Origin: Eledone cirrhosa
Lineage: Eukaryota
Assembly (NCBI GenBank): GCA_964016885.1
Contig: OZ024742.1
Coordinates: forward strand, 209,932,001-209,996,000
Length of the DNA stretch: 64,000 nt
Direction: 5' to 3'
A model generated the notes under the pieces. The model saw only the letters and a program-made list of their open reading frames with translations. It made no database searches and was not told the DNA's origin. Numbering within the stretch: position 1 is the stretch's first letter; each line of letters starts with the position of its first letter. A program made the translations under genes and the position numbers. Below are positions 14,901 to 51,363 of the stretch, one piece after another.

Positions 14901-16519
14901 GATTCTGGTCTCACTGATGGCCACCACATCTATATTTAGTGACCTGAGGTCGTTGAGCAGGTGACTCTGCTTCCAAGATGACCCCAGACCACGTACATTT
15001 ATACTGCCTATTCTAAATACGGCCATGTTGGATGAGAAACGGGGTAAGTGAGAAAGGATCACTTACCTTAATCGTGTGGTGAAGGGACAGTAGAACCGTC
15101 CCTTTGGCTGGTCATGGGTGTTTCCAAGAGGATGTCGGTGTATATCCTTTTGGTAACCGACCCTCTGAAGTCTCCAACTGCGTTGGGGAATTTTTGTTTT
15201 AAAAGTGTATAGTGTTTTATTTTGATTTCAGTGGTGTTAATGTTTGTCGGGAGAGTTCTTGGTGTTGGTGGGGTGTCGTAGTTTTTTTATGTGGTGTCTG
15301 TGGTGTCTGTGTGCTGTATGTTGTAGGAGTTCTTTATTTTCCATGTTTATGGCTGTGTACTTTGGGGGGGGGGGGGGTGATTTTCTTGCTGTTTTCTTGT
15401 TGTTGCTATTTGGTGTGTGTGTTTTATTGTGTTTGCGATGTTGGTGTTTCTGGTGATGCTGGTGGTTGTGTGGTTATTGTTGATGGTGATGCTTGTGGTG
15501 GTGATGGTGGTGGTGTTGCTGCAGGTCTACTTGCAGCCTTTACCCCTCTTTGTCTGCCTTCACTTTTGGAGGGTAAAGGTAAGGGTTGTTCCTTTTTTGT
15601 TTTTTGTGGCAGACCGTTTGCCACTTCCCTCCCGCCTCATACTCCATGTCAGATTCTGTGGCGTTTGGGAGGGGCATGAGCTCCACTGCTGTTGGTAGTG
15701 GTAGTGGTGCCCGCTCCGGCGATTTTGCCGCTGCTGTAGCTACTGCGACTGTTGGTGTTGCCACCACTGCTGCCGCTGCTTTAGTTGTCAGTGGCCTTGG
15801 TATGGGTGCCACAGCCACGGACGTTGCCCTCCTACTAACCATGGAAGGGTCTTCTCCCTCTGTTGCCTGCCCTGATCTTGGTAGCAGCGGATCAGGCGTC
15901 GGAAGGAGGGGGGTCCTCTTCTTGGCTGTCTTCTGGGGGCAGAAGGCCCTGAGGTGACCATTCTGTCCACAGAGATAGCACTTTGGGCGCCTTCCTTCCA
16001 CGCTTATAGGGTGTTGGAGCTCTTCTTCGAGGTCTATGGTGTCTGTGATGGCCTCGATGCACTCCTGGTCAGTCTGCATTAGCATTTGCATGCCTCTTCC
16101 TGACCAGTTCTCTCTTCCCATTCTCTGTATTTGCAGTATGGTGGTCTTGTCCTCGATTCCAGCCAGTACAGACGCGGCCAGCCAAGGTATTGTCTTGTCG
16201 GGCGGGACTTGGGTCACTTTGACCATCACAATTTTCTGCCCGCAGAAGGAGGGCACCAAGACTATCTCCTCACTCTTTAGGGTTTCCAAAGAGTGAGACT
16301 TCGCCTCTTGGGGTGGCGAAAAGAACGTCTACTGTGGCGTACTTTTTGCCTCGGGTGATGTGGGTTTTGCGCACCCAGACGCACCCCAAGGCCTTTTGGA
16401 TTTGAGCCTCGTGGCTCCCTCCACCCGATGTGAGATTTTGCTTACGGTGCGGTAAGTCACCGTGCGCAGCTGCTAGTCTTTGAAGAAATCGGGTGAAGGT
16501 TTCAGGGAAACTCTATTGC
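11941..16519 (-). mobile_element. degenerate Tx1-like LINE (copy H) with an (ATT)n 3' end
   Basis: ORF1 remnant with EGRRPKCYLCGQNGHLRAFCP. ORF2 fragments read SINVRGL, GDWNG, NFRPITLLN, DQSKAFDRV, ANADD and CLKC..ETVLHAFVQC. The 3' end is AATAAA-gaaagt-(ATT)6, and there is an internal ORF2 deletion near 14410. Confidence 0.9.
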
Positions 16520-21680: not shown

Positions 21681-21711
<31 letters not shown>

Positions 21712-21844: not shown

Positions 21845-21907
<63 letters not shown>

Positions 21908-21958
21908 GTGTATATATATATATATGTATATATATATATGTGTATATATATATATGTG

Positions 21959-22009
<51 letters not shown>

Positions 22010-22052
22010 GTATATATATATATGTGTATATATATATGTGTATATATATATG

Positions 22053-22143
<91 letters not shown>

Positions 22144-22166
22144 GTATATATGTATATATATATGTA

Positions 22167-22241
<75 letters not shown>

Positions 22242-22268
22242 GTATATATATATGTATATATGTATGTG

Positions 22269-22316
<48 letters not shown>

Positions 22317-22403
22317 AATGTATATATATATGTATATATATTATATATATATATTTATATATATATATATGTATATATTTATATATATATATATGTATAT
22401 ATT

Positions 22404-22434
<31 letters not shown>

Positions 22435-22473
22435 ATGTATATATTTATATATATATATATATTTATATATATT

Positions 22474-22531
<58 letters not shown>

Positions 22532-22534
22532 CAC

Positions 22535-22607
<73 letters not shown>

Positions 22608-22610
22608 CAC

Positions 22611-22641
<31 letters not shown>

Positions 22642-22646
22642 TACAC

Positions 22647-22677
<31 letters not shown>

Positions 22678-22682
22678 TACAC

Positions 22683-22715
<33 letters not shown>

Positions 22716-22768
22716 TATATATATGTATATATATTTATATATATATTTATATATATATATATATACAC

Positions 22769-22815
<47 letters not shown>

Positions 22816-22841
22816 TATATATATGTATGTCTATATATATA

Positions 22842-22923
<82 letters not shown>
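21461..22923. repeat. compound microsatellite: (CT)n(CA)n, a ~1.25-kb interrupted (TA)n tract, then (GA)n
   Basis: Direct inspection; it is the source of the long spurious YIYI ORFs. Confidence 0.97.
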
Positions 22924-22926
<3 letters not shown>

Positions 22927-23163
22927 GGGAGAAAGTGAAAGCGAGAGAGAAAGAGAGAATGAGACGTACATAACATTTTCTGTCTCTTAGATGCAAGGAA
23001 ATATTTTGCACTTCATTCTGAAGTTTCCAATTCCATAACTATTCATACATAAGATAGGACAACGACAACAGCAAGAATAACAACAATAACTGGACATTTA
23101 AATGGCATTGGCAATAATGGCAACAACACTGGTGATGTTGTTGTTGATGATGATGGTGAGGAT

Positions 23164-26197: not shown

Positions 26198-26388
26198 GGT
26201 GGTGGATTGGCAGTATCGGTAGAGACTCGGACGCCATGCTTTCCAGCATAGTTACGTCCCTTTACGGTCTGAGTTCAAATCCCGCCGAGGTTTATTTTGC
26301 CTTTCATCCTTACGGGGTCGATAAAATAAAGTACCAGTAATGCACTGGGTAATTGCTGGCCTTGTGCCTAAAGTAGAAACAATTATTA
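26198..26388 (+). mobile_element. full-length tRNA-derived SINE family 1 with TSD
   Basis: A box TGGCAGTATCGG, B box GAGTTCAAATCC and flanking direct repeat ATTATTAATATCGTTCCT. Confidence 0.92.
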
Positions 26389-26835: not shown

Positions 26836-29800
26836 TATTTCTTTATTTACCATAAAGGCATAAAAAGAAGGGACAAATACAAAGGGGGAGTTTACATAAA
26901 ACCAAGTAAAAAGGGTATAAAATGAAAATAATCGAAAACAACCTCAAAAGGGAGGGAACGTGATGGGGGTTGCACACCCCCCCGAAAAAGTGTGCAATCC
27001 TTTGCCCGGGGAGCACATGGAGAAGGTGCTCCCCTCTCCTTCACTTCTTTACCTACAGGATGGTATACAGAGAAGGCCCATTTACACGAGCCATTCTCGC
27101 CACTATCACCCACCTTTCATAAAACTGCCTGTGGCCAAGCACCTCTCCCTCCATTCTTATCCTTCTTCCGAAGTGATATCGGAAGAAGTAGACCAGACTA
27201 TGGCCAGAGAGGAATTTGCCTGACCTCAGACCTTTCAATCGTGTCCACCAAACAACCGCTTTCAACATGGCTATTACGCACAGAAAAACCGCCTTTGCTT
27301 CCTTTGTGAAGAGGGGAGGCGGCTTGATTGTCTTCACGGACTCGGCGGTCAATCGAATCGGTGCCACCCGCGATAGCAGTCGTTCGGCGTAGCCCCACAG
27401 ATCAGCCACTCCCGGACATTGCACCAATGCGTGCGCAACGGTTTCTTCGTGACAAACGCATCTAGGACAAAGCTTTTTTCGGGGGATCCCTGCCCGGGCG
27501 CCCGTGTCTGTAGAGCCTCTCTCGAACGGGTAGAGCCCCCCGGTAGCACTGCCAGGCTAGTGACTTCTAGAAGTTGTCCATTGGTCCCGGGCCGAAAGTC
27601 CTACCGAACAGGCTGGTCAGTTCGTTCTCTTCCATGTCCAGTGACTCTCCAAGGGTGTCATCGCCTCTGCTAGCCACCAGCCCTCTATAGAATGATGAGG
27701 TGGATTCTCCACCGATGGCCGGGCCCGCTTGCCAGAGAGCCCTGAGCGCCTGGGCACACTCAGTGTGCCAGTCTCCCAGTTTTCCGGATCTTTGCTTGAC
27801 CCAGGAGTGCAGCTCGGTGAGCGAGACGAGTCTCAGAAAGGCTCGTTTCACGAACGGAGCCCACACCGGTTGACCAGTGAGGAATACCTGTAGGTGCCGT
27901 AGCCTTAATGCGTGCCTACGCATCATCAACCACGGCATCCCCAGCCCTCCTTTCGAAGGTTGTTGGCAGCAGATGGATCTTCTCACCATAGGAGGGCGCT
28001 TCTTCCAAAGAAATTGGAAGAGCATGCGTTCCATGGTGGTGAGTGTTTCCTTAGGGCAAGGCACGACAGTCAGGCAGTAGTAAGTGACGGACGCTATGTA
28101 AATGTTCGCCACCTCCGCCCGACCTTTTAGGGACAGCTTACACTTGGCCCATTTCTGGGTTAGTGCAAACACCTTGTTCGTAACCTCGTCCCAGTTCTTT
28201 TCCACCTGGAGGTCCGGTCCAAACCAGACCCCAAGCAACTTCACCGGGCCCTCCGTCCAGTGTCCGACGACACCGTCGGGAGGCATCGGTCTGCCTCTCC
28301 ACGTTCCGAGTTGCAGCCCGATGGATTTTTCCCGGTTCAGTTTCGCTCCTGACGACCTTTCGTAATCCTCCAGTAAGGTACCGATCGCCTCGATCTCCGA
28401 GTCGGTCGATACCATTACTGTTACGTCATCGGCGTAGGCCGACACCGCTTTGCTCAATCCTGGTTCCAGGGGGATACCCTGCAACAACCCCAACTTCCTC
28501 AGTAAAGGCTCGAGAGTCAATACGTACAGAAGGGAGGAGAGAGGGCACCCCTGTCGAATGGATCGTGTGATTTCGAACGGCTTCGAAAGGTAGCCGTTCA
28601 CCTTGATCCTAGAACAGATGTGGTTGCTATGTAAGGCAGTGATCCAGCCTCTGAAAACAGGACCGAACCCAGCCGCCGCTAGCACCGCATCCAGGTAACC
28701 ATGGTCGACCCTATCGAAGGCCTTAGACTGATCCAAGTTGATCAGGGCCCCACCGAAGCCGGGTTTGTTGCCAACCCTCTCTATGATGTATCGCATGAGG
28801 TGGAGGTTATCGTGAATGAACCTGGATGGGATAGCACATGTCTGCGCATCTCCCACCAGGCCACCCACGACAGGCGCCAACCTCTTTGCTAACACCTTGG
28901 CCAAAATCTTTAACTCTGTGTTTAGCAGGGTTATGGGCCGAAAATTATTTATACTATCCCCCTTGTTCTCGTCCTTCCTCACCAGCGAGACTACGCCCTT
29001 GGCTACAGAACAAGGAATTCTCCCGTTCTGCTGCCAATTGCAGTAGACCGCTTCGAGGAGTTCGGAGAAGAAAGCCGGCATTGCTAAATAAAGTTCGTAA
29101 GGTATACCATCGAGACCTGGAGATTTGCGTCTGCTGCATTAGCTCAGCGCATCCCCGATCTCATCAGCCGAGATTGGTCCCTCGCAGGACTCTGCCTCTT
29201 CGCTCGAGAGACGCGGCAGGCCGTCGAGGTATGGACCAAAATCCACGTCCCCACCCGGATCCTCGCCTCCCCCGAATAATCGGGCAAAGTGCCTTTGAAA
29301 GGCCTCGCACATCTGCTTAGGCTCCCGGATCACCCGTCCATCCTCGTCTTGCAAAGACCGGATGGTGGATCGATTTCCACTCTTAGCTTCTGTCACGCGG
29401 GCCCAGCCAACGGCTTTGGCCCCCTCATTACCTAGAGCACGTATTTTACTTCGAATGACGCAGCCTTCGTGCTTTGCATCGAAAAACTGGCTCAATGCCG
29501 TCCTCGATGCCAGCACTCTGGCCACATCTTCGCTCTTGATTGCCTCTTCTAATTTACCTGTTAATTCTTTCTCGTTTCTATTCCTATCGGCAGCTAACAT
29601 CTTGCTATAACTTATTGATTCTGTTCTAATCTCTCTTTTGAGAGATGCCCACCATCGGTTGTTGACGATTGCACCCGTCAACCTCTCCTTAACTAATCTG
29701 CTAATCCGGTTTCTGTAAGTCTCTTTTGCCGGTAAAGACAAATTAAGTTTCCAGTAACCGGGACCCTGTTTATGTGTTTTCTCGAGATTGACTACGCAGG

Positions 29801-32648
29801 TCACTAATTTGTGATCCGTATAGCCAACCGGACAGCTTAATATGTCCCTATCCTTACTTCTAACTAAGAATCTATCTAAGTACGATCTAGATTGACCACT
29901 ATGGTTCGTCCAAGTCCAGGTTGGCACAGTCGGAAAATCTAGTCGATATCTATCGACCAAGTTAAAACGGTCGAGTAACCCCTTGAGGCTGTTACACTCC
30001 CCTCTATTAGGACATGCTCCTGCATAGTCTCAACGTGCATCTAGGATGTCATTCCAATCCCCCGCTAGAAGCAGGGAACGCGACGTTCCCAGAAAAGTCT
30101 CCAAACGCTGGAAGAAGTCGGGCCGTTCAGCTCCGAAAGGGGAGTAGACGGCGACCAGTCTCAAGGCCGCACCTTCACTACTGCCAACGTCTAGCACCAA
30201 CAAACGACCCTCCGGGTCCGAGTGAACAACCTGTACGGCAAGACCCAGGTGTTTTTCCAGCAGTACGACAACCCACCCCCACCTCCAGGTTGACAGAGAG
30301 ATGCATGCACCTCAAAGTCATCGAAGGTAGGGGCCAGCTGCCGCACGACGCTGATCCGAGTCTCACAGATAACCATTACATTTATACCACGTGACCTGAG
30401 GTCATTTAAAAGCTTTGCTTGCTTCCAAGTTGAGCCCAGGCCACGTGCATTCAAACATCCTACTCTTAACACATCCATGTCGGCGGCAAAGCCAAAGGAG
30501 AGTGTAAAGACCTACCTTTCTGTTTCCCGGGGTTCGGGTCGCACGACTTCCATGGGGTCGGGGGTGTTGGGTGAAGGGGTGTCTTGTGGTGGTGTGGGGT
30601 CGTCAGTGTGTGGTGGGGTTGGGGTGTTTTGAGTTGTGTTGGGGAGGGAAAGGGGAGGGGTAAAGCTTTTTAGTAGGACGTGGTTTATGGGTTTGACAGA
30701 GGGTGGTCCTACGTCCTCCTTAAAATCCTTTTTTAGTTTTTGGTAGAGGTTCATTGGGATCTTTATTAATTTTAAATGTGGGTAGTTTTCTGAAGAAACA
30801 AAGTTTACACCTTCGGTTTGTACCGAAGGGTTATTGTTTATGAGTTCATTTAATTTATTATTGTTTCTGTTGATGTAAGTATAGTGTAATGTCTTTTTTT
30901 CGGATGGTGTGAGTGTTTCGAAGAGGGGAGGGGCAGGTTTGGTTTTGTTTGTTGCTGGAGGGGTGTTTTGTGTTTTGTTGGATTGTGTTGACATTTGGGT
31001 AGGGGTTGTTTGGCCTTGTGTGTTTTGCACATGTTTTCTTTTTTTCCTTTTAATCTGTCTGAAGGACTCCGTTTCTTCCTCCGAATTCGTTGGGTTATCT
31101 TCAGTGTTGGAGGGAAGAGGTATGTTTGCTGGTAATGTTTCCGTGTTAGTTTTCTTTGTGGGGGAGATGGATGTCACTATGTTAGATTGTGTTGTGTGTT
31201 GTGGCTGCGGTGGTTGTGTTGTTTTATTGGGTGAGGGGTTGGGTGGGACTGTGTTTTGTTTTTGGGTAATGTGTTGTGACTGTTTGTGTTGTGGTGGTGG
31301 TGTAGTTTTACTGAGGGACGGGTTGGGTGCGACTGAGTTTTGTTGTTTGTTTATCTGTTGTGGTGGTGGTGGAGCTGGTGTTGGTAGCAGTGTTTTCTTC
31401 TTGTTGAGTTGGGGACAAGCCGCCTTCAGGTGCCCTCTGCCTGCACAGATATGACAGGACGGCCTTCTCCCCTCCACGCTAATGTTTATATACCCGTGGC
31501 CCTCTAATAGGATTCTGTCGGGTATTTGGGCAATGCGTTGAGGCTTCATTTGCACCACAAGTTCTATACCTGTTCCACTGAACGCATTGCCTGTGGTTTT
31601 CCCAATGGAAATCACGTTGTCATTCGCTGGATCGATGAAGCCATCTATGAGCCAGCAGTAGTCCACATCTGGCATCATCGCATCCAGCCATATGCGCTGA
31701 GTTCTTTTACCCATATAAGATGGATAAAAGGTAAAATTTGTTGAACGAATCAGCGACAAAGCATATTTTTTTGCCGCCGATTCGTTCTTCATAATAATCG
31801 CTAGGCTTCCATACAGTCTGTCTCTTCTTATGAAAGTGGTTTCACTAAGTACTTCTGTAAGTACTGCTTTGATTTCTGTTTGTTTGGTTGTTGAGTTTTT
31901 TAGAAATGTTGTTGATGGTGCGGAAAACGACCGTCCGACTTTCAATGTCTTTGGTGAGTTCTTGAGGCATTTTTACCGATAAAATACCATTTTCCCCTTG
32001 AGTTATGTATTGTTTGGCGTTTTTAATTCTTTGTGCCACATCTGAAATATTTTCAGGTATATATGTCAAAGATTTCTTTGTTGTTTGTGCAAATGAAATA
32101 TTATTGGTGTTGACTTTGTCGTCTGCTTTGCTTTCTGTTATGATGTTGTTTTCAAATGTTATTTTTGTGTTTGTTGTGTCTTTGTTTGTGGTATTAATAT
32201 TGTCATGCAATTTTTCAAATTTTTTTTTGTTGTTGGAATCAATGTCCAGATTTGTGTTTTCGTCATTTTTCTCCGCACATTCGTCTGTTTTTATTTTATT
32301 TTTTCTTTCCTTCTCTATGACGTTAGTTGGGAAGGAATGGGGGACTAAAGCGTGCGAGCTTACAACTCTTACCGCTGTCCCCTCACCACTATTTTCGTTA
32401 GCTTCGTTTAACATTTCTGTCAGACGATTGAAATTTTATGCCACAAAATTTCAAAAAACAGGTTTTTCACTCCTGGGAGGGGCGAAGATGAGCTGACTCA
32501 CCGCCTGACAGTTCAGACGGGGGGTCAAGCTACACAATAGTATCAAAATTAAAATTGAACTTACAAAATTTCAGCAATAAATTTGAACAAAACTTCTGCG
32601 CGAAGTGAATTACATCTACGCTGTCGAACAGACGACAGCTAGATCCTT
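26836..32648 (-). mobile_element. full-length degenerate Tx1-like LINE (copy A) with an 18-bp TSD
   Basis: ORF1 ~32414-30512 (CHICAGRGHLKAAC knuckle; frameshifted) and ORF2 30478-27053 (several disruptions). TSD GCCGAATACA(T/G)ATAGATA at 26818-26835 and 32649-32666. Confidence 0.95.
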
Positions 32649-34009: not shown

Positions 34010-34096
<87 letters not shown>

Positions 34097-34359
34097 GTTT
34101 CTTTTATTTGCCACTAGGGCATCAAAAGTGGGACAAGTACAAAGGGGGGAGTTTACACAAAAAGGCGTCCTCAATAAGGAGGAGGCAATAACAAAATATA
34201 AAAATAAAATAAGATATAACAAAAAATAAAATTTTTAACAAAATCCTCAATAGAGAGGAGGCGCCTTGGGGGGTCGCACACACCCCCGAAAAAAGTGTGC
34301 AACCCTTTTCCTCAGGAGCACAGAGAGGGGGTGCTCCCTCGTTCCTTCCTCTTTTCCAC

Positions 34360-37300
34360 CTACAGGCTTATGTAAAGAGAAGGCCCATTCACACGGGCCA
34401 TTCTCGCCACTTTCACCCACCTTTCATAAAAACGACTGGGGTGCAGCACCTCTCTCTCCATCCTGATCCTTCTTCCGAAATGATATCGGAAGAAACGGAC
34501 CAGTTGTTGGCCAGAGAGAAAGGTGCCTGACTTCAGTCCTTTCAGACGCGTCCACCATACAACCTCTTTCTCCATGGCTATTACGCACAGAAACACCGCC
34601 TCTGCTTCATCTTTGAAGGGGGGAGGCGGCTTGATCATTACAATAGACTCGGTGGTCAACCGGATCGGTCCCACCCTTGACAGCAGTTGTTCGACATAGC
34701 CCCACAGATCGGCTACGCCCGAGCAGTGTACCAATGCGTGTGCAACGGTTTCCTCGTCGCACACGCATCTGGGACAGATCTTTTTGGCGGGGTCCCTACC
34801 CGGGCGCCCGTGTCTGTAGAGCCTTTCTCGAACGGGTAAAGCCCCTCGGTAGCACTGCCAGGCCAGGGACTTCTGGAAGTTGTCCATAGGTCCCGGGCTG
34901 TATGTCCTACCGAACAGGCTGGCCAGTTCGTCCTCCTCCATGTCTAGGGCTTCTCCGAGGGCGTCGTCGCACCTGCTGCGTACCAGCCCTCTATAGAATG
35001 TTGCGGTGGAGTCTCCACTGATAACCGGATCCGCCTGCCAGAGGGCGGTGAGCGCCTGGGCACACTCAGTGTGCCAGGCGCCCAGTTTTCTCGGTCTTTG
35101 CTTGACCCAGGATTGCAGCTCGGTGAGTGAGACGAGTCTGGGAAAGGTTCGTCTCACAAACGAGGCCCACACCGGTTGTCCGGTGAGGAATACGTAGAGG
35201 TGCCGTAGCCTTAATGCGTGTTTACGCATCATTAGCCACGGCATCCCCAGCCCTCCTTTCGAAGGGTGTTGACAGCAGATGGATCTCCTCACCATAGGAG
35301 CCCGCCCCTTCCAAAGTAATTGGAAGAGCGCGCGCTCCATCTTGGTGAGGGTTTCCCTTGGGCAGGGCACTACGGTCAGGCGGTAGTAGATGACGGACGC
35401 TATATAAGTGTTCGCCACCTCCGCCCGACCTTTCAGGGATAGTTTGCAACTGGCCCACTTCTGGGTCAGTGCAAACACCCTGTTCGTAACCTCCGCCCAG
35501 TTTTTCTCCACCTGGAGGTCCGGTCCGAACCAGACCCCGAGCAACTTCACCGGGCCCTCCGTCCAGCGTCCGACGACGCCATCGGAGGGCATCGGTCTGC
35601 CCCTCCACGTGCCGAGTTGCAAACCGATCGACTTGTCCCGGTTCAGCTTAGCCCCTGTGAACTTTTCGTACTCCTCCAGTAAGGTGCCGACCGCCTCGAT
35701 TTCGGAGGCCGTCGACACCATTACTGTCACATCATCGGCGTAGGCTGACATCGCTTTCCGCAATCCCGGTTCCAAAGGGATGCCCTGCAACAACTCCAAC
35801 TTCCGCAGTAGTGGCTCGAGAGTCAACACATACAGAAGGGAGGAGAGAGGGCACCCTTGTCGGATGGACCGCGCGATTTTGAACGGCTCCGAGAGGTAGC
35901 CGTTCACCTTGACCCTAGAGCAGATGCGGCTGCTGTGCATAGCAGTGATCCAGCCCCTGAAAACGGGTCCGAAGCCTGCCGCCGCTAGCACCGCATCCAG
36001 GTAACCATGGTCGACCCTATCGAACGCCTTAGATTGATCCAAGTTGATCAGAGCCCCACCAAAGCCGGGTTCGTTCCCAACCCTCTCTATGATGTATCGC
36101 ATGAGGTGGAGGTTGTCATGGATGGACCTGGACGGGATAGCGCATGTCTGCGCATCTCCCACCAGGTTGCCCACGACAAGCGCCAACCTCTTTGCTAGCA
36201 CCTTGGCCAAAATCTGTAACTCTGTATTTAGCAGAGTTATGGGCCTGAAGTTACTTATTTCGTCCCCCTTGTTCTCGTCCTTCCTCACTAGCGTGACTAC
36301 GCCCTTGGTCACAGTACAGGGAATTCTCCCGTTCTGTTGCCAGTTGCAGTAGACCGCCTCGAGGAGATCGGGGAACAAGTCCGGCATAGCTAGATATAAT
36401 TCGTAAGGAAGACCATCGAGACCCGGGGATTTGCGTTTGCCGCATTGGCCCAGCACGTCCTCTATCTCAGCGGCCGAAATCGGCTCCTCGCAAGACTTCG
36501 CCTCCCTGTCCGAGAGGCGCGGCAGGCCGTCGAGGTATGGACCGAAGTCCACGTTTCCAACCGGCTCCCCGCCCCTCCCGAACAGTCGGGCAAAGTGCCT
36601 TTGAAAGGCCTCACACATCTGCTTAGGCTCAAGAATCGCCCGTCCATCCAGGTCTCGCAAAGACCGGATGGTGGATTTAGTTCCACTGTTGGCCTCTGTC
36701 ACGCGGGCCCAGCTAACAGCTTTGGCCCCCTCGTTCCCTAGAGCACGTATTTTACTTCGGACAACGCAGCCTTCGTGCTTCGCGTCGAAAAACTGGCTCA
36801 AAGCCGTTCTCGACGCTAGCACTCTGGCCACGTCGCCGCTTCTAATTGCCTCTTCTACTCTATCTATTAGCTCCCTTTCCTTCCTATTCCTATCCGCAGC
36901 TAGAACCTTACTAAATTCAATCGAGACTACTCTAATCTCTCTCTTTAGAGATACCCACCACCTGCTGTTGACGATCGCTCCAGTCAACCGTTCCTTAACT
37001 AACCTACTAATCCGATTCCTGTAGGCTCTACTTGCCGGCAAGGACAAGTTGAGCTTCCAGTAACCGGGGCCCTGTCTATGCGTTCTATCAAGGTTGACCA
37101 TGCAGGTCACCAACTTGTGGTCTGAATAGCCAACCATGAGCATTTCTGGACAACTTAAAAAGTCCCTGTCCTTATTTCTAACTAAAAATCTATCTAGGTA
37201 CGATCTAGATGATCCGCTGCGATTTGACCAAGACCAGGTTGGCACCGTCGGAAAATCTAGTCGAAATCTATCGGCCAGGTCAAATCGGCCGAGTAACCCC

Positions 37301-37797
37301 TTGAGGCTGTTGCACCCCTCTCTATCGGGACATGCCCCTGCATAGTCCCAACGTGCATCCAGGATACCATTCCAATCCCCCACTAAAAGCAGGGAACGGG
37401 ACGTCCCTAGAAAAGACTCCAGACGCTGGAAAAAGTCGGGCCGCTCTGTCCCAAAAGGGGCATATGCGGCTATCAGCCTAAGGGCTCTACCTTCACCACT
37501 GCCAAGGTCCAGCACTACCAGTCGACCCCCTGGGTCCAAGTGAACTATCTGTGTTGCAAGGCCCATATGTTTTTGCAGCAGAACGACAACCCCACCCCCA
37601 CCTCCGGGCTGACAGAGAGATGCGTGCATCTCAAAGTCGTCAAAGGTGGGGGCTAGCTGTCGCATGCTGCTGATCCGGGCCTCGCAGATAACCATCACAT
37701 TTATAGATTGTGACCTGAGGTCATTTAGAAGCATTGCTTGCTTCCAAGACGAGCCCAGGCCACGCGCATTTAGACACCCTACTCTTAGCACAGCCAT
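34360..37797 (-). CDS. ORF2: AP endonuclease, reverse transcriptase and CCHC finger (1145 aa from the ATG)
   Basis: Uninterrupted ORF with CLNARGL, GDWNG, SYLDRF, SDH, GPGYWKLN, KSPGLDGL, NFRPITLLN, DQSKAFD, RQGCPLS, AYADD, KGGLG and CPRC..ETVAHALVHC, typical of the L1/Tx1 clade. Confidence 0.96.
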   Translation of the reverse strand: MAVLRVGCLNARGLGSSWKQAMLLNDLRSQSINVMVICEARISSMRQLAPTFDDFEMHASLCQPGGGGGVVVLLQKHMGLATQIVHLDPGGRLVVLDLGSGEGRALRLIAAYAPFGTERPDFFQRLESFLGTSRSLLLVGDWNGILDARWDYAGACPDREGCNSLKGLLGRFDLADRFRLDFPTVPTWSWSNRSGSSRSYLDRFLVRNKDRDFLSCPEMLMVGYSDHKLVTCMVNLDRTHRQGPGYWKLNLSLPASRAYRNRISRLVKERLTGAIVNSRWWVSLKREIRVVSIEFSKVLAADRNRKERELIDRVEEAIRSGDVARVLASRTALSQFFDAKHEGCVVRSKIRALGNEGAKAVSWARVTEANSGTKSTIRSLRDLDGRAILEPKQMCEAFQRHFARLFGRGGEPVGNVDFGPYLDGLPRLSDREAKSCEEPISAAEIEDVLGQCGKRKSPGLDGLPYELYLAMPDLFPDLLEAVYCNWQQNGRIPCTVTKGVVTLVRKDENKGDEISNFRPITLLNTELQILAKVLAKRLALVVGNLVGDAQTCAIPSRSIHDNLHLMRYIIERVGNEPGFGGALINLDQSKAFDRVDHGYLDAVLAAAGFGPVFRGWITAMHSSRICSRVKVNGYLSEPFKIARSIRQGCPLSSLLYVLTLEPLLRKLELLQGIPLEPGLRKAMSAYADDVTVMVSTASEIEAVGTLLEEYEKFTGAKLNRDKSIGLQLGTWRGRPMPSDGVVGRWTEGPVKLLGVWFGPDLQVEKNWAEVTNRVFALTQKWASCKLSLKGRAEVANTYIASVIYYRLTVVPCPRETLTKMERALFQLLWKGRAPMVRRSICCQHPSKGGLGMPWLMMRKHALRLRHLYVFLTGQPVWASFVRRTFPRLVSLTELQSWVKQRPRKLGAWHTECAQALTALWQADPVISGDSTATFYRGLVRSRCDDALGEALDMEEDELASLFGRTYSPGPMDNFQKSLAWQCYRGALPVRERLYRHGRPGRDPAKKICPRCVCDEETVAHALVHCSGVADLWGYVEQLLSRVGPIRLTTESIVMIKPPPPFKDEAEAVFLCVIAMEKEVVWWTRLKGLKSGTFLSGQQLVRFFRYHFGRRIRMEREVLHPSRFYERWVKVARMARVNGPSLYISL

Positions 37798-37821
37798 GTT
37801 GGTGGTAAAGAGAAAAGGCAC

Positions 37822-39465
37822 TTACCTCTCTGCGTCCCGGGAAACGGGCCGCTCAATTTCCATGCTGGTTGGGGATGGGTTGTTGGGTGGGGTGGTGGTT
37901 TGTGGAAGTGAAGGGGCATCGGTGTGTTGTGGGGTTGGGGTGTTTGTCGTTGAGTGGGTGTCTGGGTGGGGTGGGGGGGTGAAATTTTTTAGGAGGACGC
38001 GGTTGATTGGTTTGGCGCAGGGGGGGCCCACGTCCTCCGTGAAATTTATTTTCAGTGTTTTGTACAAGTGCATTGGGACTTTTATCATTTTCAAATGAGG
38101 TAGTCCCACAGCAGTTATAAAGTTTGGCCCTTCAGTTTGGACCGAAGGGTTTGCTGAAATTGTTTTCCGTAATTCTTTGTTGTCTGTGTTCATGTATGTG
38201 TATTGTAAGGTCTTTTTTTGTGTAGCAGTTAGTGTTGTGTGACAGGGAGGGGTGGTTTGTGTGTAGTTTGTGTTCTCTTGGGGGGGGGTTAAAGTTAACA
38301 TGTGTGTCTGTGGTGCGTCTCCTCTTCTTTCTTTTTACTTGTTGGAAGGGATCTTTTTCGTCTTGCGACGAAAGAGGTTCGTCTTCCTTGTTGGGTGGGA
38401 GGGGTATGTTTTCTGGTAGTGTTTGCGGTGTGCGTGTTTTTGTATTTGTTTTGGGTGGGGAGGGATTGGGTGGGACAGTATTCTGTGTTATTTTTTCACG
38501 TGTTTGTTGTTGTTGTTGTTGTGGTGGTGGTGGTGGGGTTGTTGGTTTTTGTTGTTGTTGTGGTTGTTTTTGTTGTTGTAGTTGGGGTGGTATTGGTGTT
38601 GGTAGCAGTGTTTTTTTCTGTGTGAGCTGGGGACAGGCAGCCCTCAGGTGACCTCTATTGCCACAGAGGTAACAGGAGGGACGCCTACCCTCCACAATAA
38701 TGTTGAGGTGGGTACGGTCATCCAGCATGACGCGCTCAGGGATTTGGGCGATGCGTTCTGGCCTTATTTGGGTCAGAACTTCGAGGCTCGTTCCACTGAA
38801 CGCGTCGCCGGATGCCTTCCCTATTGAGATGAGGTTGTCCTCGTCTAAATTGAGGAAACCGGTTAGTAACCACCAGTAGTTTATGTTTGGGGTGATGGTG
38901 GTTATCCATATCCTCTGGGTTTTTTTACCCATGTAGGTGGGGAAGAAGGTGTAGTGTGTGGACCGAATTGGCGACACAGAGTATTTTTTTGCCGCCAATT
39001 CGTCTTTCATCAATATGGATAAACTCCCATAGAGTTTATCCTTTTGTATGAAAGTGATGTCTCTCATCGCGTCTTTCAAGACTAACTGAGTTTCCGCTTG
39101 AGATGGTTGCGCTGGTTTCTTTGTTTTATTTAAAATTGTTCGGAATACGACAGTTCGTAATTCCGTCTGTCTTTTTAGCTCCGGAGGTGAATGTATAGAA
39201 AACGATCCGTTTTCGCCAAAAGACACATATTTCTTGGCTTTTTCCAGCATTTCTTTTGCTTTTGAAATATCTTCCAGCACATAAGCGACTGATAATTTAG
39301 CCGTTTGTGCAAAAGATATTTTGTTTTCGTTTTGGATATTAGTATTGTTTTGTTTCTCGTCGTTTGAGTTGTTTTCATCTTTGTTGTTGTTGTTGTCTTT
39401 CTCGTTTCGTGTGTGGATACTTGTGACGTTTGTGTTGTTGTTGTTTTTGTTGTCTTTATTGTTGC

Positions 39466-39496
<31 letters not shown>

Positions 39497-39673
39497 GTTT
39501 TCAAATTCTTGTGTAGTTGTGGCTACATCTAGTGGTCGGTCAACAGGTGAAGACAATTCTTCCTCTCTCTGACCTCTGCCTTTGGCATCTGCTGCTGTGA
39601 CAGTGGCAGGGGGAAGCTGTGAGTATGACTTCCCCTTTCCTTCTTTGATTGATGGTGAAGATGCTTCAGCCAT
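37822..39673 (-). CDS. ORF1 nucleic-acid-binding protein (Asn-rich N-terminus, RRM-like core, CCHC knuckle, Pro/Gln-rich linker, conserved C-terminal domain), frameshifted near 38285
   Basis: ORFs 38132-39682 and 37822-38301 overlap at the G9 run 38280-38288. The knuckle is CYLCGNRGHLRAAC. Both parts are collinear with ORF1 of copy A. The RRM call is an inference from family knowledge. Confidence 0.85.
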
Positions 39674-40121: not shown

Positions 40122-43100
40122 ATTTCTTTATTTGCCACAAGGGCGCACAAGAAAAGGGGACAATACAAAGACATATGGCGAGGATTTTAATACAGTCGTG
40201 TAAAAAAGTTTTAACATGAAAATATAACAATCGAAATCCCCAATAGGGGAGAGGCGTTACAAATGGGTTGTTTTATACCCCGTAGATAGAACAACCATCA
40301 ACTCCAGGAGCATGTTGTGCAAGTGCTCCTTTCTTCCTTTTGCTCTCTTATTCAACCTACAGGCTTATATACAAAGAAGGCCCAATCACTCGGGCCATTT
40401 TAGCCACATTCACCCACCTTTCAGTAAATTTACTGGGGTGCAGTACCTCTCTCTCCACTCTGATTCTCCTTCTAAAGTGGTTCCTAAAGAAGGGAATGTA
40501 TTGTTGTCCGAAGAGAAAGGCATCTGTCCTCAGTCCCCTGAACCTTGTCCACCATATAACCTCTTTCACCATAGCCACTATACAGAGGAAAACCGCCTCT
40601 CTTTCGTTTTTAAATGAAGGTGGTGGTTTGATCCTTACTATGAACTCGGCAGTCAACTGGGTTTGTCCCACACGCGACAGCAGTTGTTCTGCGTAGTTCC
40701 ACAGGTCAGTTACGCCCGGGAAGTGTACAATTGCGTGCAGGACGGTTTAAATGTCCCGCTCGCATCTTGGACACGTCTTCTTTGAAGGATCCATGCCTGT
40801 AAATCATATCGCGTACTGGTAGAGCTCCTCGGTAGCACCTCCAGGCCAGGGACCTTTGGAAGTTGTCCATAGGTCACGGGCGGAAAGTCCTACCGAACAG
40901 GCTGGTGAGCTCGTCTGTCTTCTTCGACGCCCAGAGTCTCTCCGAGCACGTCGTCGCACTTGTATCGTACTATCCCTCTATAGAATGACGAAGTGGGGTC
41001 TCCATTGATTGCTGTGCCCGCTTGACAGAGGATTGTGAGCGCCTGAGCGCATTCAATGCCAGGTGCCCGTTTTCTTCGGTCTCTGCTTGACCCAGGACTT
41101 ACAGCTCAGTCAGCGAGACAAGCTGCGGAAAGGCTTGACTCACAAACGGAGCCCACACCGATTGGTCGATGAGGAATACCTGGAGATGCCGTAGCCTCAG
41201 AGCGTGTTTGTGCATCATCAGCCACAGCCTTCCCAGCCCTCTGTTGGAAGGATGCTGGCAGCAAACGGATTTCCTCACCAGTGGAGCTGCTTCTTCCAAA
41301 GGAATTGGAAGAACATGCGTTCCATCTTGGTGAAGTGTTCACGGAGACAAGGCACGACGGTCAAGTGGTAGTAGATGACGGACGCCATGAAAGTGTTGGC
41401 CACCTCCGCTCGAGCTTTCAAGGATAGTTTGCACTCTGCCGACTTCTGGGTGAGAGCAAATACCTTGGCCGTGGCCTCGTTTTTGTTTTTTTCCACCTGG
41501 AGGTCCGGACCGAACCAGACCCCGAGCAATTTCATCGGTCCTTCCGTCCAGCGTCCGGCGGCGCTGTCGGACGGCATCGGTTTGCCTCTCCACGTTCCGA
41601 GTTGCACACAGACAGACTCGTCCGGGTTGAGTTTTGCTCCTGTAAGCCTTTCGTATTCCTGTAGTAAGTTGCCAATCGCCCCGATTTCCGAGGTTTTCGA
41701 CACGATTACTGTTACGTCGTCGGCATAAGTCGACGCCGCTTTTCGCAGTTCCGGTTCCAACGGGATGCCCTGCAAAAGCTCCAGCTTCCGCAGTAATGGC
41801 TCGAGAGTCAACACGTACAGAATGGAGGAGAGAGGGCATCCCTGTCGGATCGAACGGCTCCGATAGGTAGCCGTTCATCTTGACTGTCGAACGATGTTGG
41901 TATGCATGGCTGTGATCCAGCCTCTGAAGACGGTTCCGAAACCGGCCGCCTTGAGAACCGCTTCCAAGTATCGATAGTCGACCCTATCAAACAACTTAGA
42001 CTAATCTAAATTGATCAGAGCCCCACCGAAGCCGCGTTTACATCCCACCCTCTCTATGATGTATCGCATGAGGTGGAGGTTGTCGTGTATGGACCTGGTT
42101 GGAATTGCACAGGTTTGAGCTTTTCCCACCAGGTTCTCGACGACAAGCGCCAGCCTCATTGCTAACACCTTAGCCAAAATCTTTAACTCTGTGTTTAGGA
42201 GAGTTATGCGCCTGAAGTTACTTATCTCGTCCCCCTTGTTCTCGTCTTTCCTGATCAGTGTTACTACGCCCCTGCCTACAGAGCTGGGAATTCTCCCGTT
42301 CTGCTGCCAGTTGCAGTAGACGATTTCGAGGACACTAGTGAACAAGTCCGGTATGCCTATGTAAAACTCATAGGGTAGACCATCTAGACCTGGTGATTTG
42401 CGTTTCCCGCAGCGGCCCAGAGTGTCCCGTATCTCAGTGGCTGTGATCGGTCTTTCGCAGAACTTGGCGTCCATGCTCGAGAGACGCGGTAGGCCGTCGA
42501 GGTATGAACCGAAGTCTATTGCCCCGTTCTGCGCACCGCTCTGCTCGAATAGTTGCGCAAAATGCCACTGAAAGGCCGTGCACATCTGCCTGGAATCAAG
42601 TAGCACGCGTCCGTTTTGGTCTTTCAAAGACTGAATCGTGGACTTGTTGCCACTTTTCGCTTCTGCCGCTCGGGCCCAGCTAACAGCTGTTGCTCCCTCG
42701 TTTCCTAGAGCACGTGATCTACTCCTGACAACGCAGCCTTCATGTTTCGCATCGAAGAACTGGTCCAGTGCCGTTCTCGTTGCTAGCACTCTAGCTGCGT
42801 TACCTCTCCTAAGCGCCTCCTCTACCTTGGCTACCAGTTCTCTTTCTGTTTTATCTTTCTCTAAAGCTAGTTCTTTGCTAAAAGCTATGGACTCTACTCT
42901 AATTGCTCTCTTGAGAGAGCACCACAACCTATTGTTGACGATGGCTCCCGTCAACTAGTGCTTAACTAAACTACGTATCCGTCTACTGTAGGGTTTACGC
43001 GTCGGTAATGACATGTTCAGCTTCCAGTATCCGGGTCTATGCGTTTTATCATGGTTGACTATGCAGGTGATTAGTTTGTGGTCTGAATAAGCAACCATGT

Positions 43101-45768
43101 ACATTTGTGGTCAGATTAACATTTTCCTCTCTCTCTCTCTCTAATAAAAAAAAAACCTATGTAAATACGATCTAGATGTCCCGCTGCCATTTGTCCACGT
43201 CCACTGTGGTGCAGTCGAGAAATCTAGTCGATACCTATCGGCCAGTTGTAATTGGCCGATTAAATTGAGGTTGTTGCGTCCCCCTCTACTGGGACATGTT
43301 CCTACGTGCATCTAGTATACCATTCCAGTCCCCAATTAAAAGCAAGAAGCGAGACGTTCCCAGAAAAGACTCTAGACGCTTAAAGAAATCTGGCCGCGAT
43401 TGCCCAGTCGGGGCATAAACGGCCACCAGTCTGAAGGCTCCACCTCCAGTATTGTTTAGGTCTAGCACTACCAGCTTATCTTCCGGGTCCAAGTATATTT
43501 GCTGTATTTCGAGGTCCAGGTTTTTCCGAAACATGACAGCCCCCCCCCCCCTCCTGACTGACAGAGAGATGCGTAGATCTCAAAGTCATTGAAGATGGGG
43601 ATTAATTGCTGCTTCTTGTGGATCCTGGACTCGCTGATGGCTATCACATCTATACCGTGTGACCTAAGGTTGTTTAAAAGTTGGCCCTGTTTCCAGGGTA
43701 TCCCTAGGCCACGCACATTCACACATCCAACTAGTAAATTAGCCATGTTGGTGGAGAAGAGTTGGCGACAAAGGCGAAAAGATGCACTTACCTTTTCGTT
43801 TCCTAGAGATCGGGTTGTTCAATCTCCTTTTGGGTGCTGGTGGGGGTGTTGGGTGGTGAAACATTTTAATAGGACGCGGTTTATGGATTTTTGGCAAGGG
43901 GTCCCGACGTCCTGCAAAAATTCGTTTTTCAGTTTGTTGTAAGTTTCCATAGGAACTGTTATCAATTTCAGGTGTGGTGCTGATCCTGATTTCACGAAAG
44001 TTTTCCCCTCGGTCTCCACTTTGGGGTTTTTGGAGATGACCTCCATCAGGTTTTTGTTGTTGGTGTTGATGTATGCGTATTGTTGTTTGTGTTTTTGTTG
44101 TGTTGTTTTTGTTTGTAATTCATTTGGGAGTTTTCTTTTTATGGTGGGTGTTTGTGTTTGGGGTGGTGTTGGTAGGGGGAGGTTTGTGTTGTTGTTTGTG
44201 TCGGCAGTTGTGTATTTGTGTTGGTGATTGGTGTTTTTGTGGCTTTGCGGTGTTTCTTTTATTGTTTTTTTTATTTCCGAGGCTCTCTTTTATCCTCGCT
44301 TGGCGATGGAGAAGTAGCTTCCTCTGATGATGAATCGTCATCAGGGGCGTGCGGGAGGGGTATGTTGTGTGGTGATGGTGTGTTTGTGTGTGTGTTTGTG
44401 GTAGTGTTGGATGGAGTGGGATGGGGTGGGACTGTGTTTTTCAGGGGAGTTGTCTGTGTTTTTTCTGTTGTTTGTGGTTGAGTGGTTGCTTGTTTTGGTG
44501 TTTGCTTGTTTTGTGTGGTGTTGTTGTTGTAGTGGTGGTAGTTTTGGTGGTGATTTTGGTAAGAGTAATTTTTTGTCTTGTTTTTTGAAGTTTGTCTGTA
44601 AAGGGCAAGAGGCCTTTAAATGCGAAAACATCGAAAACAGTGCGGCCGCTTGTTTTCAGTAGAAATGTTGAAGTGGCTGTTATTGTCTACTAGTACCCTC
44701 TCTGGAATCTTGGAGATTCTCTCCGGCCTCATTTGTACCAAAACTTCCAAATTTGTACCAGACCACGTGTGTCTGGTTGATGTTTTAATGGGGAGGGTGG
44801 TATCCTCTCCCTCTTCTAAAAATCCTCCCCAAATCCACCAAATATTGATATTTGGTAGTATATTGAAGATTTTTATCTTCTGAGTTGTTTTTCCCAGGTA
44901 AGTAGGGAAAAAGGTGTAGTTGGCAGATGTGACCGGAGTCACAGAATATTTTTGTGCGAGAGCCTCGCTTTTGAGGATCACCGAAATGCTTCCATACAGT
45001 CTGGCCCTCTGCATAAATCTATGTCCGGCAAAGCCTCCTTCAATACCGTTTCTATTTCCCCTTGACTGAAGAATGCCGGCTTCCTTGTAGCATTTGCAAC
45101 AGTTCTGAAGGTAACAGTCCTTCGGAGAGTTTCAAAGCGGATTTCGGGGTGTGAGTTTATTTTAAACCCGCCCTTTTCTTCGAAAGTCACAAATTGTTTT
45201 CCTTCTCTCAGCGTCTCGCTAGCATTGGAGATATCGAGATTTTTTAAATCTTGTTTTTTTTTTGTTAGTCTCAGCGAAAGATATTTTTTTGGTATTGTTG
45301 TTGTTGTGGTTGTCACATTTTTGGTTTATGGTTGTGGAAATTGTCTCATTATCTGTGGTTTTTGTTGTGTGTTCTGTGCTGTGTGGTCCATTTTGTTAGT
45401 CTCTTGTTTCGCTTTCTTGGCGAAAAAAAACTATGTTGTCACATTTGTAACCATAGTGACGCCTATGCCGGCAGACGTCTTGGAAACGTTAACTGTTGCC
45501 TTTCTCTCTCCATTAGCTTTAGCGGAGACAAGCGTTCCTTCTTCGTTTGCCATTGTTGATAGCAGAATAATTTTTCTTTTTTTCAAAACTTTTTCAAATA
45601 AAATTTCCGCCCCTCTGAGGCGAAAAATGAGATTACCCACCAGCTGACAATTCAGCCGGGGAGGTTAATCTACGAAACAATGTGTTTTTTCAACAAAGGT
45701 TTCGGATTTTTTGCATGCAAAATTAACAAAAAAACTTACCAGCGAAGCAGCGCAGGTCAATACTATCC
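40122..45768 (-). mobile_element. full-length degenerate Tx1-like LINE (copy D)
   Basis: ORF1 remnants at 45552-43788 (RPHCFRC..SHLKASC) and ORF2 remnants at 43746-40357, with many frameshifts. Confidence 0.93.
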
Positions 45769-49300: not shown

Positions 49301-51363
49301 TCGGCCAGTTGAAATCGGCCGATTAAGTGTTTGAGGCTGTTACACACCCCTCTATCGGAACATGCTCCTACATAGTCCCAACGTGCATCTAGGATTCCAT
49401 TCCAGTCCCACACTAACAGCAGGGAGCGGGACGCTCCCAGAAAAGTCTCGAGACGTTTGAAGAAGTCTAGCTGTGGCGTCCCAGATGGGGCATATGCGGC
49501 CACCAGCCTGAAGGCTCCACCTTCACTACCGTCAACGTCTAAGACCACCAGTCGACCCTCCGGGTCCAGATGTACCGTCTGTGTTACGAGGTCCAGGTGT
49601 TTCCGCAGCAAAACGGCAACCCTACCCCCACCTCCCGGCTGACAGACAGATGCGTAGATCTCAAAGCCGTCGAAGATGGGGCCAATTGTCGCTCGCTGTG
49701 GATCCTGGACTCGCAAATGGCTACTACATCCATACTGTGCGACCTGAGGTCGTTTAAGAGTTTGCCCTGTTTCCATGGCATCCCCAGGCCGCGTACATTC
49801 ACACATCTAACTTTTATATTGGCCACGTTGGTGCTGAAAAGTTAAAAGAAGAGGAAAAGAAATCACTCACCTCTTCGTCTCCTGGGGACACCAGGCTGCA
49901 CAATTTCCATGGGGTTGTTGGAGGGGTTGTTTGGTGGGGTGGTGGTTTCTGGCGGGGGTGGGGATGGAGATGTTTGGTGGGGAGGGGCTGTCAGGTGGGG
50001 GTGGGGTGGGGAAACATTTCAAAACGCACGTCCTTAGGAAAGTTTTCTTTTAAAGATTTGTATGTGTCCATGGGGACCCTAATCATTTTTAAATTAGGCC
50101 CTTCCAGACAGTACGAAAAAGTTTTAATATTTACTTTTGGTTAAAATATTTACTTTTGGTTGGATGCACGACTCTCTTATTTTCTGTGTCCTTTTTCCCA
50201 TGTATGTGGAGACACAGAATATTTTTGTGCCGTCACTTGGTCTTTCATGAGGACCGAAATGCTGCAAAAAAGTTTACCTTTTTGTATGAAGGTAATGTCC
50301 TTCATTGAGTCTTTTAACACCAGTTCAATTTCATTATGAGTTTGCAGCATAGAGTTATGGCCCTTTATGATCTGAGTTCAAATCCCGCCAAGGTTAACTT
50401 TGCCTTTCATCCTTACAGGGTCGATAAAATAAAGTACCAGTAATGCACTGAGATAATTGCTGGCCTTGTGCCAAAAGTAGAAATAATTATGAGTTAATTG
50501 AACTGGTTTTCTTGTGACATTAGATACTGTTCTAAAAACTAATGTTCTTAAAACATTTTCTCTGCGTAACTGTTGGGGGGAAGTAATGCTGAAGGTACTA
50601 TTCTCCCCAAATGTCATGTGTTGTTTTGCATCTTCCAGTAACTCTAGCTTTAGTGATGTCGATTTGCGTGTAAATTTCCGTTTTGTTTTTACTGTTTGCG
50701 CAAACGATATTTTGCTGTTGTTGTTGGTGTTGGTGTCGTCATTGTTGTTGTTGTTCTTGTTGTTGTTGTTGTTGGTGTTGTTTTGGTTCGTGCCATTCAC
50801 AGTTTTCATGTTATTGGTGCTGGTGTTGTTGTCGTCAGTGTGTTTTTTAAACATATCGACGTTTTCAACGTCTTTCACTGAGGTGGTACGAGGAGGTGCC
50901 TTCGGGCTTGGCACTCTTACCGCCTCTCCACCACTTCTGTCTAATTGTTGACTGACAGTTTTGATGTTTTTGTTGTTGTTTTTGTTGTTGCTGGTGTTAC
51001 TGTTGTTGTTGGTGGTGGTGGTGGCTGTATTAGAGACAGCAGCAGGCGAGCAGACCCGACCTGCCACTAGCACTGTGGAAGGTGGAATTAGCAGCCCATC
51101 TCCACAATTTTCTAATATATTTTTTGAGAAGACAAGGTCAAGACATTTAACCATTTTGGCTATTTTCAAAATTTAAGTAGAAATTTTGTGGTATTTCTCC
51201 CTTTTTCGCCCTGATGGGTTTATTATTTGGGGTTGCTACAACCTACAATGTGTAGGGTGACAGCTTATCTACAGAACGTTGTAAAAATGTAAGTTCAGTT
51301 CATGTAATTTCCAACAAAATTCAAGCTTTTATTCACCAGCGGATTTTCCACGTGTGTTCATCT
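46337..51363 (-). mobile_element. degenerate Tx1-like LINE (E2) with an internal ORF1 deletion and a SINE insertion
   Basis: ORF2 remnants at 49826-46441. ORF1 lacks the knuckle region (deletion near 50170). The 5' end abuts GATA repeats. Confidence 0.92.
50343..50490 (+). mobile_element. 5'-truncated SINE family 1 inserted in ORF1 of E2
   Basis: SINE body with TSD ATTATGAGTT at 50333-50342 and 50486-50495. Confidence 0.92.

Follow-up and report, generated by a model that had tools for sequence, protein, structure and literature searches.

Within a 64,000-nucleotide (nt) stretch of the Eledone cirrhosa genome (assembly GCA_964016885.1, contig OZ024742.1, positions 209,932,001 to 209,996,000 of the forward strand; hereafter the window), copies of a long interspersed nuclear element (LINE) that we take to be Tx1 carry a consensus 5' splice site (donor) where the first open reading frame (ORF1) ends, and a long-range complementarity of about 110 nt that joins this junction to the end of ORF2. 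We put at about even the chance that these two features act together as a splicing switch, in which a copia-like removal of ORF2 would be gated by a duplex that masks both splice sites. LINEs need many ORF1 proteins (ORF1p) for each ORF2 protein (ORF2p), as well as an unspliced template, and to our knowledge the way in which the ORF1p:ORF2p ratio is set in bicistronic LINE RNAs is largely unsettled outside mammalian L1 and SART1.

The focal element, copy C, lies on the minus strand. Its intact ORF2 (AUG 37797, stop 34360; 34360..37797) encodes an apurinic/apyrimidinic (AP) endonuclease, a reverse transcriptase (RT) and a zf-RVT domain; PF03372 and PF00078 score over the cut-off and PF13966 just under it (E 2.8e-5). 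ORF1 (37822..39673, with one frameshift near 38290-38330) has no Pfam matches, and contains a conserved C-terminal domain and a putative CCHC knuckle, as suggested by the motif CxxCxxxxHxxxxC and in Atlas look-alikes that are CCHC clusters at 0.91-0.92. The Tx1 label comes from a first-pass annotation of the window and presumably holds, since it agrees with the features we associate with that clade; the homologues retrieved were unnamed. Across the 3.0-Gb genome, a degenerate pattern for the ORF2 N-terminus matches 8,346 places, against 17 for a control pattern. One hundred near-full-length stretches were taken and 65 rows sorted into subfamilies on a tree, with J and N added by targeted searches. 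This gave 17 subfamilies, each represented by one natural copy and designated by letters of our own, and all own-genome copies form one clade. J2 was dropped as a separate family and left out of later counts because its 3' end is N-type, which makes it a probable chimera.

The first-pass annotation had reported donors at five ORF1/ORF2 junctions, and all five are present on the minus strand: AAG/GTAAGT at 15066 (copy H), AAG/GTAGGT at 30515 (A), GAG/GTAAGT at 37825 (C), AAG/GTAAGT at 43791 (D) and GAG/GTGAGT at 49870 (E2), the slash marking the predicted exon boundary. The copy C donor (37820..37828) overlaps the ORF1 stop. Over the family, the donor is kept in 17/17 representatives, 25-52 nt before the ORF2 start, and is complementary in each to the 5' end of the genome's own U1 genes. 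Positions -1, +1, +2 and +6 never vary, G occupies +5 in 16/17 and A occupies -2 in 15/17, and +3 and +4 are always purines; two of the 17 have weaker donors. Set against the synonymous background, a comparison the annotation had suggested, donor conservation exceeds that of four-fold sites in the same representatives, where 72 of 237 such ORF2 sites (30%) are near-invariant and deep clades are 51-57% identical.

The reading frame in which the donor is embedded is not constant. It falls in phase 2 of ORF1, as an Arg-stop, in 12 representatives, in phase 1 in four (H, I, I2 and E', whose ORF1s end in GK-stop or GE-stop), and in phase 0 in family G alone, where a 16-nt deletion just upstream has shifted the frame and ORF1 continues 13 codons beyond the donor. 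The earlier description of a donor sitting on the ORF1 stop does not always hold, family G being the counterexample. Copy H had been read as stopping a few nucleotides early with the motif persisting; the motif does persist, but the premature stop arose by mutation in this one copy, whereas the family reads CAA G/GT AAG TGA with a phase-1 donor. These comparisons support a nucleotide-level constraint on the donor that is independent of the ORF1 frame, and we consider it highly probable that the donor is a selected U1 site. A caveat is that donors were identified by matching a pattern in roughly the 110 nt that precede ORF2, which makes some of this invariance true by definition. The U1 small nuclear RNA genes themselves are arranged in tandem, repeating about every 2.67 kb (G000:C1128 and G000:C2:180973544-180995099).

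At the family G junction (L093, L111, L124, L131) there is no AUG at the usual ORF2 start, with CCAAAATAG in place of the CCAACATGG of the others; the TAG in this sequence serves as the stop codon of ORF1, and a matching change is seen in the ORF2 end with which it pairs. ORF2 of family G may therefore start at a non-AUG codon.

The second feature, which the first-pass annotation did not contain, is an imperfect inverted repeat of ~110 nt that brackets ORF2. Its 5' arm comprises the last ~50 nt of ORF1, the donor, a pyrimidine spacer and the first ~7 ORF2 codons, and its 3' arm runs from ~7 codons before the ORF2 stop to ~95 nt into the 3' untranslated region (UTR). Plain repeat finding missed the duplex because the arms are gapped and rich in G-U pairs. 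In copy C the predicted duplex joins 37764..37880, which spans the ORF1 end, donor, spacer, ORF2 AUG (37797) and first codons, to 34278..34392, which spans the last ORF2 codons, CTGTAG/G, the purine-rich start of the 3' UTR and a segment complementary to the donor (anti-donor), both on the minus strand. When windows along the element were scored symmetrically as partners of the junction, the ORF2 end was the best in 14/15 representatives (z 3.8-14.9), J2 being the exception, and 17 aligned N copies pair with their own junctions at scores of 41-63 against a background near 22. Cognate arms outscore non-cognate ones (p<5e-5 over representatives; p=0.0015 over 27 fixed pairs), and G-U pairs outnumber A-C mismatches, 143 to 93.

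In the register CC-A-ACA-U-GG against CC-UGU-A-GG, the ORF2 AUG lies opposite its own stop, and this register is fixed in 16 representatives, with CCTTCTCT lying opposite the AGAG of ORF2 codons 5-6. For the 27 fixed pairs around the AUG and stop, 300/432 cells are paired, compared with 150-180 when the arms are slid, and double changes occur at 7 pairs; subfamily I, which has a 3-nt deletion, is left out of this count. The 3' UTR also contains a segment that pairs with the donor region in 17/17 representatives, at a predicted -13 to -32 kcal/mol versus -8 to -14 for U1, and this segment tracks the donor letters at +3 and +4 in D, E, F, G, H and N. The predicted, covarying duplex is a firm new result that offers exact base pairs and would hold even if splicing fails, and we regard it as very likely to be a selected feature.

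Folding predictions are less clear-cut. The duplex lies within the whole-RNA minimum-energy fold (3.9-kb RNA) for F and not for C or A, one of three, and although it is favoured over local folds by a net -5 to -33 kcal/mol, it beats all seven control windows in only 9/16 cases; both results weigh against the proposed switch. Consensus duplex folding on gapped arm alignments recovered just one 8-bp helix. The near balance between the modelled energies of the duplex and of local hairpins fits a switch and does not show one. Such hairpins occur in copy C at 34260-34340 (GGAGCAC with GTGCTCC, and GGGTTGCACAC with GTGTGCGACCC), overlap the 3' arm, and exclude the long-range pairing. They are candidates for an ORF2p recognition site.

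Both features extend to an outgroup (L338-L379) that shares the ORF1 C-terminal domain and has ORF2 identity of 40-43%. G/GTAAGT directly follows the ORF1 stop in 14/15 distinct junction and 3' end types over 38 outgroup loci. The ORF2 end is the best junction partner in 7/8 outgroup copies, at homologous codons (z -2.3 to -4.4, by duplex energy), cognate arms again outscore non-cognate ones (p=0.0004), and 586/612 cells over 9 copies are paired with four compensatory positions, the pairs having been defined on L338, which favours pairing. One subfamily, L369 (1990-2050), has an overlapping TAATG stop-start without the junction donor, which is at odds with a splicing switch; the complementarity between its ORF2 start and end reaches z 4.9 by alignment and only z -1.8 by duplex energy. 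Beyond the outgroup the features fade: among distant relatives at 21-29% identity, the junction donor was found in 0/14 and a good ORF2-end partner in 1/13 scored, an AT-rich match. The outgroup copies, dozens of tandem full-length LINEs, lie inside a record titled as a bacterial metagenome-assembled genome, which is probably mis-binned animal host DNA.

The first-pass annotation had placed the acceptor on the ORF2 stop itself. Its nine window ORF2 ends are as described (CTGTAG in 8/9, TAA at 12205, G next in 7), as are the 3,466-nt donor-to-TAG span of the putative intron in copy C (34360-37825, minus strand) and the join AG/GTAA in copy A. As a rule for the family, its notion of an exact intron does not survive, since 6,080/25,970 ORF2 ends matched by one pattern pair (H and J1 ends falling outside the pattern) stop on TAA, the young intact lineage N among them, and about 250 nt of 3' UTR precede the acceptor of the outgroup. 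The TAA ends among the matches listed are nearly all from lineage N, in which the ORF2s are intact and the donor is strong. Nor do CTGTAG and CCTTCTYT count as independent evidence of an acceptor, as had been supposed, since in the predicted duplex both pair with the first codons of ORF2. Pairing alone can explain CTGTAG and the pyrimidine tract, a point against the splicing switch. It is a further weakness that the stop-AG acceptor is mediocre, with 9-12 pyrimidines in 15, a rival AG within 15 nt upstream in 10/15, and ranks of 1-16 among about 110 YAGs.

Stronger candidates occur downstream. In lineage N and its sister J1, a U-tract and a ACACGCAG/A site lie 153-182 nt past the start of the 3' UTR, with AATAAA about 70 nt further on; this CAG acceptor was scored in 8/8 J1 ends and 25/27 N-type ends, and no equivalent was found in H, I or the other own-genome lineages scanned. 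In the outgroup, a conserved pyrimidine tract and YGTAG lie about 240-260 nt past a second donor near the ORF2 stop (42/50 second donors scored), and the 3' UTR of L369 contains CAG/GTAAGT and, 144 nt from it, a TAG with 15/15 pyrimidines. Every donor-bearing lineage examined has a sequence resembling an acceptor, either on the ORF2 stop or beyond it. The TAA lineage N belongs to the only own-genome clade with a downstream acceptor, so that loss of the stop-AG is confined to a setting in which a second candidate was available, though this is one event only. In L338-L379, the second strong donor lies at or 17-43 nt after the ORF2 stop; a U-tract comes next and then, at a distance of 144-260 nt, a conserved acceptor. 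The genomic copies seen still contain this intron-like unit of the 3' UTR. The possibility that a small-RNA gene lies behind the outgroup 3' donor was considered and rejected, there being no Rfam match.

The splicing switch would operate on each transcript as it is made. While the 3.4 kb of ORF2 is transcribed, the donor would be free for U1. The emerging 3' end may then pair with the junction and so hide the donor and the AUG, as well as the AG of the stop codon in lineages that have one, and the masked, unspliced RNA would be exported as ORF2 mRNA and template. Should the 3' end fold into its local hairpins instead, the spliceosome would join the donor to the stop AG in most lineages, and to a CAG or TAG further into the 3' UTR in the J/N clade and outgroup. 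The product would be an ORF1-only mRNA yielding ORF1p in excess, and would rarely be copied back into the genome because it makes no ORF2p in cis. More tentatively, with the odds somewhat on the other side, these elements may represent an ancient animal LINE clade in which the whole of ORF2 is a regulated intron, the 3' UTR carries an anti-U1 strand, each transcript is committed either to ORF1-only mRNA or to full-length template, and the acceptor and restored stop co-evolve with donor phase.

Removal of ORF2 by splicing is itself an even bet, a prediction from sequence, and two patterns favour it. First, with the donor joined to the stop-AG as predicted, 10/14 stop-AG lineages would regain an ORF1 stop within 3 codons, compared with 5/28 in the wrong phases (p=0.003 with random phase, 0.02 when shuffled). 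The restored stops follow donor phase (NN-TGA or NN-NNN-stop in phase 1, G-TGA or G-TAA in phase 2), and they are not back-up stops for ORF2 because 9/10 are outside its frame. Second, the distal U-rich 3' UTRs of 14 lineages contain 9 AG dinucleotides versus 38 expected, while GA (36) is not depleted and 49 matched flank windows have 164 AGs against 163 expected. From this depletion of AG without depletion of GA, the spliceosome appears to see this RNA. In copy C the U-rich, AG-poor region with its AATAAA occupies 34103..34277 (minus strand) and is followed by a (TATC)n tract at 34012-34095.

Several observations currently weigh against splicing. First, an equal scarcity of AG is seen in 14% of control windows, and the early-stop excess falls to p 0.02-0.23 when lineages are collapsed; all of the subfamily statistics count related lineages as independent, so that every p-value given here is too small. 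Second, no early stop follows the join in D, E, M or the focal family C, each of which would gain 27-78 extra codons. Finally, no precisely spliced genomic copy was found against 2,355 + 1,733 = 4,088 unspliced junctions in A/C/C1/C2/M and D/E/F/K (0/245 for C alone), and probes for H, J and N also returned none, without a counted denominator and with G, I and E' unprobed. Thirty C copies all continue into ORF2, and a loose probe with about 42% power found no other sequence after the C-type exon end. Because LINE proteins show cis-preference, according to the available text of PMC5860796, this absence is weak evidence against splicing; it does argue against the mobilisable ORF1-only RNAs that the first-pass annotation had envisaged.

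Other candidate products were tried and set aside. Two matches with a changed base before the 3' UTR are point mutants, not spliced copies. The predicted spliced frame of copy C stays open for 78 codons of 3' UTR (34110-34359) and includes a hydrophobic stretch, but is not conserved in sister families; a conserved ORF1 extension was rejected more widely, as the extensions run to 1-79 residues (junction codon counted) without conservation. Trans-splicing onto ORF2 was rejected because there is no AG between the tract and the AUG in the window copies. Two word searches with ORF1 for spliced gene models were empty, a single-protein search found no related loci, an alignment search found no viral contigs, and a HMMER search for ORF1 relatives gave 158 distant matches.

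Two other explanations account for much of the same evidence and are each unlikely without being negligible. The first is that U1 binds without productive splicing, sustaining elongation through ORF2 or blocking premature 3' ends until the 3' UTR masks the site for polyadenylation and export, with the acceptors incidental. We consider it the less favoured but serious contender, since the donor is more constant than the acceptor, the anti-donor segment is present in all 17 representatives, spliced copies are lacking, and the avoidance of AG in distal 3' UTRs could just as well reflect selection against splicing. There is precedent in the available text of PMC5580714, where U1 at a 5' splice site prevents premature termination of unspliced EVD RNA, and of PMC12211998, where a 5' splice site blocks Restrictor. 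ORF2, however, holds just 0-2 AATAAA or ATTAAA per copy on either strand, which leaves little to protect, the donor is about 2 kb from the 5' end, and the phase-matched early stops and the strong J/N and outgroup acceptors are left unexplained.

The second explanation, which we consider improbable on its own, concerns translation or replication: the duplex would hide the ORF2 AUG opposite the stop until ribosomes finishing ORF1 open it, so that few ORF2p are made per RNA and are passed in cis to the 3' UTR hairpins, the splice-like motifs being by-products. The fixed opposition of AUG and stop and its counterpart at homologous outgroup codons agree with this, as does L369, which combines a UAAUG overlap and ORF2 start-end complementarity with no junction donor, and SART1 requires a structure downstream of its stop-restart site (PMC5972666, available text). 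Pairing alone, however, would let the donor drift with its partner, yet +3 and +4 vary only among purines even where unpaired, and the motif persists across three frames and in the outgroup. This explanation and the splicing switch can both hold. That an ancestral Arg-stop and an old inverted duplication were simply retained by descent, without function, would suit the single own-genome clade, the near-invariance of almost a third of four-fold sites and the two weaker donors, and is very improbable given that donor and pairing persist where deep-clade four-fold identity has dropped to little over half, that compensatory changes occur in the own clade and outgroup alike, and that relatives at 21-29% identity lack the junction donor and, but for one AT-rich case, a good partner.

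The closest known parallels to the splicing switch are long terminal repeat (LTR) elements, and the comparisons that follow draw on the available portions of the papers cited. Drosophila copia splices out a ~3-kb intron spanning all of POL (PMC5580714). As in copia, with its spliced gag RNA, and the plant Ty1/Copia elements EVD and BARE, with their short gag RNAs, a strong donor follows a capsid-like ORF; the candidate intron covers the enzyme ORF, as it does in copia, and in EVD the U1 site is likewise better conserved than the acceptor and has a second role against premature termination (PMC5580714). Those elements have one long ORF, whereas here a two-ORF LINE ends ORF1 with its own stop; splicing is demonstrated there and predicted here, and no long-range duplex over both sites is described for them in the portions available. 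If the splicing switch is real, a non-LTR element has arrived at a copia-like solution with a structural switch as an added part.

Among LINEs, human L1 RNA also contains donors and acceptors, and its protein-deficient SpIRE and SpORF2 products rely on trans-complementation (PMC5860796, PMC2896524). The donors described for L1, in contrast, are sited in the 5' UTR, and their use deletes promoter or ORF1 sequence; SpIREs make up about 1.8% of full-length L1s versus 0/4,088 here, and neither an ORF1-end donor nor an ORF2-bracketing duplex is described in those portions (PMC5860796, PMC2896524). The predicted spliced RNA has the ORF1 plus 3' end layout of HAL1 and Dictyostelium TRE5-A.2 (PMC5753468, PMC3159450), but these are genomic derivatives mobilised in trans, and no copy of this kind turned up at the joins predicted here. 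Two features recall termination-reinitiation in SART1 and L1, namely the ORF2 start 25-52 nt past the donor and the predicted RNA structure where translation would restart, although the SART1 structure lies downstream of its stop-restart and the partner here is 3.4 kb away at the ORF2 stop (PMC5972666). A survey of vertebrate L1 spacers reports no common local structure (PMC5381506). The microsatellite-targeting Tx1 elements Kibi, Koshi and crocodilian Tx1 share the two ORFs, AP endonuclease and RT, and insertion in microsatellite tracts, but the target here is mostly (TATC)n and no splice or duplex feature is described for them in the available text (PMC4494074). No such donor or duplex appears in the available portions of PMC5381506, PMC5203782, PMC9341512, PMC13282606, PMC9115989 or PMC4494074, and the literature covered, which did not extend to subscription papers and Repbase reports, describes no LINE with an intron or duplex spanning ORF2. 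With more than 8,000 junction-bearing copies in the genome, strong sense-strand donors could also exonise into host genes.

The remaining window copies, all on the minus strand, show the same arrangement. Donor and 5' arm occupy 30452..30567 in copy A and 43727..43847 in copy D, and the corresponding ORF2 stops and 3' arms 26974..27084 (stop 27053; the join restores the Arg-stop) and 40277..40380 (stop 40357). In the decayed copy E2, donor and 5' arm lie at 49821..49923 and the partner arm at 46344-46466. The phase-1 donor and 5' arm of copy H lie at 15006..15126, and an N-type 3' end with its TAA stop (12205), 3' arm and pyrimidine-tract plus CAG acceptor motif ending at 12026 occupies 12026..12229. 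Copy H appears to be chimeric, its 5' end being of H type and its 3' end of N type. The two ends of a copy belong to different subfamilies here (12026-15126) and in L107, L152, L184, L187, L188, L197 and L202, which suggests recombination or template switching within tandem arrays. A preference for multicopy repeats as targets is evident, copies adjoining (TATC)n tracts and forming nested or tandem arrays, with (ATT)n next to some N-type ends.

Other sequences in the window are not obviously part of these elements. An 863-aa open frame at 2963-5554 on the minus strand has weak similarity to the ORF2 RT region and is probably a different retroelement. The region 21400-23040, of low GC and strong skew and open in several frames on both strands, is probably a simple-repeat array. 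A dispersed repeat of ~120 nt, resembling a short interspersed nuclear element or a miniature inverted-repeat transposable element and 92-96% identical to the flank of L031, occurs at 18837-18954, 26268-26386, 50371-50490, 53960-54078 and 58669-58790.

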